Of a stretch of DNA of 6,710 bases, positions 5,628 through 6,250 are shown one piece after another. How positions within the stretch are numbered: position 1 is the first letter of the stretch; every line of letters starts with the position of its first letter. The notes under the pieces were generated by a model, which worked only from the letters and a program-made list of their open reading frames with translations, did no database searches and was not told the DNA's origin. The stretch is taken from IMG/VR virus record IMGVR_UViG_2706794698_000017; one strand, 5' to 3'. A program made the position numbers and the translations under genes. This stretch comes from a virus (Duplodnaviria > Heunggongvirae > Uroviricota > Caudoviricetes).

Positions 5628-6250
5628 TTACATGGCGTAGTAATACGCTTTCACCTGCTCCCAGTCCGCTTTGGGGATTGGCTCCAGATATTTTCCAGCT
5701 GGCGGAAGTCATGATTAATCGNNNNNNNNNNNNNNNNNNNNNNNNNNNNNNNNNNNNNNNNNNNNNNNNNNNNNNNNNNNNNNNNNNNNNNNNNNNNNNN
5801 NNNNNNNNNNNNNNNNNNNNNNNNNNNNNNNNNNNNNNNNNNNNNNNNNNNNNNNNNNNNNNNNNNNNNNNNNNNNNNNNNNNNNNNNNNNNNNNNNNNN
5901 NNNNNNNNNNNNNNNNNNNNNNNNNNNNNNNNNNNNNNNNNNNNNNNNNNNNNNNNNNNNNNNNNNNNNNNNNNNNNNNNNNNNNNNNNNGAACCCCGCC
6001 ATATCTTCAGTCACCAGCAACGCGCGCCATTCACCCTCAATTTTCACCGCTTCACCAAAAACGATCTTCGGCACGATGACACCGGCCCGTTCCAGTTCTT
6101 TAATTACCGCAACCTCACGGACAATCGTTGGTCGGCCGAACGGATAACGTACGGAATGAAACAGATGATGCGTCATGCGCTTTACATACAGCTTTTTGCC
6201 GTTGCGCTCGACGCATTGCACCCCGCTCATACCATTACGGCGATAGTTAG
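5628..6250 (-). CDS. inaA: InaA (pH-inducible Kdo/LPS-kinase-family protein); visible portion only: start codon hidden in N-run 6251-6509, middle hidden by N-run 5722-5990, apparent 1-nt frameshift near the 3' end
   Basis: Minus strand 6250-5991 reads (X)NYRRNGMSGVQCVERNGKKLYVKRMTHHLFHSVRYPFGRPTIVREVAVIKELERAGVIVPKIVFGEAVKIEGEWRALLVTEDMAGF. Below the gap, 5719-5695 reads INHDFRQLE in one frame and 5690-5628 reads KYLEPIPKADWEQVKAYYYAM-stop in the adjacent frame. I recall the E. coli InaA C-terminus as ...INHDFRQLEKYLEPIPKADWEQVKAYYYAM. Confidence 0.8.
5722..5990. other. Run of 269 N (assembly gap or masked segment) inside inaA
   Basis: Seen directly; the inaA frame is not conserved across it and the run is longer than the ~228 nt expected for the missing residues. 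Confidence 0.99.

Follow-up and report, generated by a model that had tools for sequence, protein, structure and literature searches.

The inaA gene of the DNA analysed here, a stretch of 6,710 nt referred to below as the window, carries a single-base deletion near its 3' end. We consider this deletion, with a probability of about 0.9, to be an inherited frameshift of Shigella sonnei that would make inaA a young pseudogene of this lineage. At the level of the DNA, comparison with sister genomes and outgroups shows that the lesion is there, which state of the run is ancestral and that the lineage has inherited the change.

The deletion at the 3' end of inaA

The window carries, in this order, part of yfaL, nrdA, nrdB, yfaE, inaA on the minus strand and a LysR-family remnant, and it contains four N runs. 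On the minus strand the 3' end of inaA reads ...CGC CAG CTG GAA AAT ATC TGG AGC CAA..., with a run of four A at 5694-5691 (GGAAAAT; T4 at 5691-5694 on the plus strand) in place of the A5 of E. coli (GGAAAAAT). Base-by-base alignment to K-12 places A5 exactly where the window has A4. The first-pass annotation had proposed such a 1-nt deletion shifting the inaA 3' end, and both the sequence and the K-12 alignment bear this out. The lesion (5691-5694, minus strand) causes a -1 frameshift after inaA codon E195. Translation of both frames confirms that the last 21 residues of InaA are exchanged for 13 new ones (NIWSQSPKRTGSR) followed by TGA at 5653-5651, so that the readable 3' end of the truncated CDS (5651-5721, minus strand) consists of INHDFRQLE in the ancestral frame and the new tail. 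The ancestral C-terminus is left stranded out of frame in the adjacent frame (5628-5690, minus strand), where YLEPIPKADWEQVKAYYYAM and its stop codon are base for base those of K-12 and correspond to K-12 InaA residues 197-216. The earlier description of two InaA-like segments in adjacent frames holds for the anatomy, with two corrections: INHDFRQLE occupies 5719-5693 and not 5719-5695, and the segment at 5690-5628 encodes YLEP...M* without the leading K it had been given, as the K codon is destroyed by the deletion.

The inaA run is the sole indel across the 5,531 window bases aligned to K-12. Over the same comparison there are 100 substitutions, nearly all of them silent, and the 17 other homopolymers of at least five bases are all intact. 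A compensating indel was considered and rejected, because downstream of the run the sequence equals K-12 through the ancestral stop. Further upstream, an internal inaA segment encoding residues 25-110 is readable and intact (5991-6250, minus strand), and the remaining parts of the gene are hidden by the N runs at 5722-5990 and 6251-6509.

The N runs (562-811, 2246-2498, 5722-5990 and 6251-6509) measure 250, 253, 269 and 259 bases, against true spans of 283, 242, 226 and 256 bases in identical sister genomes and in K-12. As these lengths are unfaithful, reading frames are not transferable across N runs, and the apparent frameshift of nrdA is due to this alone. A second inaA lesion, implied by an N run of 269 bases where the true span is 226, was likewise rejected since inaA of the sister genomes has no other lesion.

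Concerning the neighbouring genes, nrdA (1660-3956, plus strand) is intact besides the N run at 2246-2498 and has 0 amino-acid differences in its readable parts; NrdA of the sister loci is 761 aa long. nrdB (4190-5320, plus strand) is intact with one substitution, S364A, a common variant. yfaE (5320-5574, plus strand), convergent with inaA, is intact with 0 amino-acid differences from K-12. The NrdB variant of the window occurs in 86,221 blocks of the public collection and YpaB of the window equals that of K-12; neither discriminates between lineages.

Several features of this region were observed in passing. The nrdA-nrdB intergenic region (3959-4189) is a REP/BIME-type repeat cluster of two adjacent units of about 90 nt whose mutual alignment reaches 93%; in many E. 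coli genomes the region is shorter by about 87 nt (3,137 vs 3,223 bases). The haplotype at 4190-5721 is a mosaic. Its nrdB is 100% identical to that of one E. coli locus (L096, GCA_040087955.1), whose adjoining yfaE-inaA 3' block departs from the window at 14 of 401 positions, and the yfaE block of the window carries about 7-8 substitutions, all silent, against every non-sonnei sequence examined. A 70-aa ORF in the third frame (MTSASWKISGANPQSG..., 5500-5712, minus strand) runs from inside inaA through a REP element into antisense yfaE. It looks spurious, and it supplies the C-terminal tails of P0005, P0059 and P0003, three further aberrant InaA 3' forms found as 'InaA' proteins in databases.

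Scaffold boundaries and lineage

The window is bounded on both sides by insertion sequences. Bases 1-89, the left scaffold boundary, are the terminus of an IS3-family element in yfaL, presumably IS2 by its terminal sequence. This multi-copy sequence, annotated as IS3 family transposase, is found in up to 42 places per genome, and yfaL homology begins at about 87-90. The autotransporter adhesin gene yfaL (90-561, minus strand) is interrupted by this terminus; in sister S. sonnei loci a 361-aa truncated YfaL lies beside a 301-aa rve transposase. At the right scaffold boundary, bases 6650-6710 are an IS600 terminus with 100% identity to IS600 of S. flexneri, S. boydii and E. coli plasmids. It lies in the LysR-family remnant beside inaA (6510-6710), which was already N-terminally deleted when IS600 was inserted in it.

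In a set of 5,426 complete E. coli genomes, neither the IS2/yfaL nor the IS600/LysR junction was found. Over the 3.2-kb core of the window, identity to complete E. coli genomes reaches 98.6% at most, and metagenome loci are no closer. Mobile-element ends together with junctions absent from complete E. coli genomes point to an IS-rich lineage outside that collection, and the best identity stays at 98.6% because Shigella is filed outside it. The right junction provides a lineage marker, a 43-aa fusion ORF made of the LysR remnant and an IS600-derived tail (6538-6669, plus strand) and named 'transcriptional regulator [Shigella sonnei]'. Exact look-up finds it in 1,155 blocks of the public collection; the InaA beside it is annotated with 208 aa in 10 of the 10 places listed. 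Through a 47-aa version of the ORF we also recovered S. sonnei 4822-66, in which inaA had been called at 160 aa. Twenty Logan contigs encoding P0122 were rejected as the lineage of the window: they have glpQ directly beside inaA, no IS600 and many indels.

DNA-level comparison was made with 11 independent sister loci, the selection of which favoured the longest contigs. All 11 show 0 mismatches to all of the five readable window segments that they cover (one, L137, is without the left two), and both IS junctions are common to them wherever covered. The run is A4 in 11 of 11. Their inaA is one identical 650-nt sequence encoding the same 208-aa product, with six substitutions and the deletion against K-12 and otherwise no lesion. 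Some of these assemblies are noisy, with split nrdA, nrdB or glpQ (L129, L130, L134, L135); the clean ones (L128, L131, L132, L136, L137, L138) agree with them on A4. Moreover, at least 1,000 public contigs carry the exact 208-aa product (P0149), which is the 'pH-inducible protein [Shigella sonnei Ss046]' (UniProt Q3YZX1_SHISS). A reference InaA ending in ...QLENIWSQSPKRTGSR, the finding that the first-pass annotation had set against its own reading, thus exists in S. sonnei Ss046 (UniProt Q3YZX1).

Matching junctions, identical DNA and the Ss046-named product together assign the window to S. sonnei and make the frameshift a real inherited allele. Judged by its sequence, the window is a piece of the S. 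sonnei chromosome and not of E. coli in the narrow sense, the organism first assumed. On the same comparisons the inaA frameshift is inherited throughout the sampled S. sonnei lineage; rare A5-bearing S. sonnei lineages may exist.

Beyond IS600 (past about 7157 in L128-L138) the sister loci differ from each other. Most carry nested insertion sequences and then glpQ-glpT, one (L131) enters the ydgU...pntB region and another (L136) a molybdopterin oxidoreductase region, which suggests IS-mediated rearrangements between strains.

Ancestral state of the run

Among 5,399 complete E. coli genomes the run is A5 in 5,398, and a 72-nt window query containing A4 had no exact match in this set. As a second query we took 40 nt with the run at their centre, so that the 28-nt seed of megablast can come only from A4 carriers; this probe seeded in 1 of 5,426 complete E. 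coli genomes, that of strain A20. Metagenome contigs gave 85 matches to the A5 pattern and 0 to the A4 pattern, and an exact-pattern scan of species-representative genomes for the A4 context gave 0 matches, so that the source of the window is either absent from that set or masked in it. The unshifted 216-aa protein of the same background (P0150) is named S. dysenteriae EDX34500.1 or 'MULTISPECIES: InaA [Shigella]', and its loci have A5 in 10 of 10 non-sonnei Shigella, without the IS600 junction. Outside these species the InaA C-terminus is conserved across genera of Enterobacterales, from Escherichia to Hafnia, Leminorella and Paramixta, and the DW motif of the segment lost in the window is retained in Pseudomonas-type homologues.

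As A5 is found in E. coli and in other Shigella and the C-terminus is conserved in Enterobacterales, A5 is the ancestral state. By this polarity the deletion is one that arose on the branch leading to S. sonnei. In two respects the lesion is like that of an inherited frameshift pseudogene, being a single-base indel against an ancestral state set by outgroups and common to independent genomes.

Predicted consequence for InaA

InaA is predicted to be a kinase-like protein of the Kdo/WaaP family (Pfam PF06293; NCBIfam equivalog NF007383), and its conserved position, convergent with yfaE-nrdB-nrdA and on the glpQ side, was confirmed. The 208-aa product scores 469.2 bits against the InaA equivalog NF007383 (cut-off 235) and 241.7 bits against Pfam Kdo (cut-off 21.3), a domain spanning residues 11-213 of full-length InaA. 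Its coverage of the models is incomplete, reaching positions 1-205 of 216 in the equivalog and 1-188 of 207 in Pfam; full-length P0150 covers 216/216 and 207/207. In an AlphaFold model of InaA (31 homologues, mean pLDDT 92) the helices 183-196 and 203-215 have pLDDT values of about 97-98. According to this model the frameshift after E195 clips helix 183-196 and removes helix 203-215 with its conserved PIPxxDW...YY motif. The loss of a conserved, confidently modelled terminal helix makes loss or severe impairment of function likely, and for S. sonnei we regard a loss of InaA function as reasonably probable on the strength of the model and of the conservation.

That the allele is real and its product still works, as a C-terminal variant of InaA and not the product of a pseudogene, is possible though doubtful. 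The truncated product keeps 195 of 216 residues, including the N-lobe and the catalytic core, and stands far above the equivalog cut-off (469 against 235 bits). The gene is without a second inactivating lesion in 650 nt of DNA identical in 11 genomes, and Ss046 annotates the 208-aa InaA as a protein. However, the segment lost is the one conserved from Escherichia to Paramixta, with its DW motif kept even in Pseudomonas-type homologues, it forms a high-confidence terminal helix within the Pfam domain, and the equivalent allele of E. coli A20 is flagged by NCBI's pipeline as a 'frameshifted' pseudogene. S. sonnei is a young lineage, so the absence of further decay is expected and is no evidence of constraint.

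In K-12, inaA is dispensable, regulated by MarA/SoxS/Rob and without a known biochemical role; this regulation is known only for K-12 (PMC9301823). No polar effect of the frameshift is expected because inaA is convergent with yfaE.

A4 runs in E. coli assemblies

Natural inaA haplotypes were converted in silico to A4, and the exact products were searched for in public assemblies, which contain 8 of 10. The A5 to A4 change is seen on at least eight E. coli protein backgrounds (loci L098-L127). Of 30 E. coli contigs encoding A4-type products, 23 show 2-15 indels over 2-6.7 kb, the majority at homopolymers, and for most of them an A5 haplotype is only 0-3 substitutions away. Several are K-12-identical at every base and yet have a split nrdB, nrdA or glpQ. 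Most of the scattered A4 calls among E. coli assemblies are artefacts, for example CP044355.1, which equals K-12 but for three A5/T5 deletions, and several ERR45xxxxx, ERR104xxxxx and SRR227xxxxx runs. Seven contigs have the inaA deletion alone (L098, L101, L104, L106, L120, L121, which is strain A20, and L126), and these might be genuine.

A different inaA lesion is represented by P0002, which stands for a cluster of 374 members. It has a -1 shift in the upstream GAG-AAAA-GT run at inaA codons 176-178, a site under the N run 5722-5990 of the window, stays in the shifted frame across an intact A5 run and terminates at the premature TGA also used in the window. It was found in no complete RefSeq E. 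coli genome. A P0002-type upstream frameshift was rejected as the lesion of the window, being a different one.

The inaA A5 run could be a true recurrent slippage hotspot, with selected loss of an LPS-kinase-like stress protein. This would imply a pathoadaptive loss fixed in S. sonnei and independent origins in E. coli A20 and in the clean contigs L098 (with six similar places), L101, L104, L106, L120 and L126. We consider this improbable.

The first-pass annotation had favoured a homopolymer sequencing error in a gap-ridden draft. On this reading an A5 run near a contig end would have been under-called, in a strain whose inaA is really intact. Complete E. coli genomes are nearly devoid of A4, an N-gap edge is only 27 nt away from the lesion when no more than 4.4% of the readable bases lie within 30 nt of an edge, the N-run lengths of the window are unfaithful, and the same change is demonstrably artefactual in the E. 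coli contigs described above. Rarity, homopolymer, gap proximity and erroneous copies elsewhere all pointed to an artefact, wrongly. The error is refuted by the 11 own-lineage assemblies, of different submitters and years, which share the window's junction and all have A4 on identical DNA, so that the change is not private to one assembly and all identical-haplotype relatives carry it. At least 1,000 contigs encode the exact product, which is also the one annotated in the Ss046 reference, every readable window base matches the sister genomes, and the window has neither another indel nor a miscalled run among the 17 others, i.e. no homopolymer indels co-occurring with the lesion. Nor can an error tied to the context be specific to one lineage, since about 5,400 E. 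coli genomes have A5 in this very context. We therefore hold an artefact to be very unlikely, and the real truncating allele, at first named only as the alternative, is correct. It was only the same-lineage genomes, found via the junction-specific marker, that settled the matter. Annotation pipelines thus face this site both as a true frameshift and probable pseudogene, in S. sonnei, and as a recurrent miscall, in noisy E. coli assemblies.

Programmed recoding or phase variation, with the run as a slippery site or contingency tract switching InaA on and off, has a negligible probability: an independent change of the run is seen in E. coli A20, and a few clean E. coli contigs may hold others, but the run is invariant within the lineage (A4 in 11/11), in-frame A5 is near-universal elsewhere, no conserved frameshift signal was seen, and a tract of 4-5 A is far below the length of known contingency or transcriptional-slippage tracts.

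Probable gene decay in S. sonnei

The inherited frameshift can be put together as follows. In an ancestor of the S. sonnei lineage one A was lost from the A5 run at inaA codons 195-197, most simply by replication slippage. The A4 state was then inherited, and it is present in every S. sonnei assembly examined. The mRNA is expected to be read ...QLE-NIWSQSPKRTGSR-stop, giving a product of 208 aa in place of 216 aa, which should retain the N-lobe and the catalytic core of the Kdo/WaaP kinase-like fold. With the end of helix 183-196 and all of helix 203-215 gone, the protein would probably be destabilised or inactivated. As a young pseudogene, inaA would be in keeping with the reduction of its surroundings, where IS2 interrupts yfaL and IS600 has entered the LysR remnant.

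In the reference genomes of Shigella, IS copies number 229-348 and pseudogenes at least 199 (PMC7373316). In the literature we found no paper linking inaA with Shigella pseudogenes or discussing the allele, and inaA and yfaL are unnamed in that part of the supplements of PMC7373316 which was available to us. Databases already contain the allele, which equals the annotated protein of Ss046 and has for years been part of the reference annotation. Its biological weight is small, as it would add one more gene to the long list of decayed genes of S. sonnei.

Comparison with known systems

The closest known relative is InaA of S. sonnei Ss046 (Q3YZX1). Its 208-aa sequence is identical, including the NIWSQSPKRTGSR tail, and there is no detectable difference over what can be read of the window gene, which lies partly under N runs. 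InaA of other Shigella (P0150) shares the same four amino-acid substitutions against K-12 and differs in having A5, 216 aa and no IS600 at the LysR remnant; the flanking DNA of its loci is about 98.3-98.4% identical to the window.

K-12 InaA (WP_000301050.1; NF007383; PF06293) is the orthologue in the same position between yfaE and the glpQ side. The K-12 gene differs from that of S. sonnei by 6 substitutions in 651 nt, and its protein is identical up to E195 save for Q118R, I146V, N166K and D184N. From there on the two part: K-12 has A5 and 216 aa, whereas the window has A4 and 208 aa and is without the conserved terminal helix. E. coli A20 (NZ_CP028755.1, from a bat) has the same A5 to A4 deletion and the same premature stop. 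It carries them on another haplotype, with three further substitutions in the last 50 nt and other flanks, which argues for an independent event or an error and against shared ancestry.

At the level of the fold, the best structural match of the InaA model is the LPS core heptose kinase WaaP/RfaP (PDB 6DFL; TM 0.72, E 3e-11). The two differ in sequence, with a weak match of only about 19% identity, and are alike in fold over nearly their full length.
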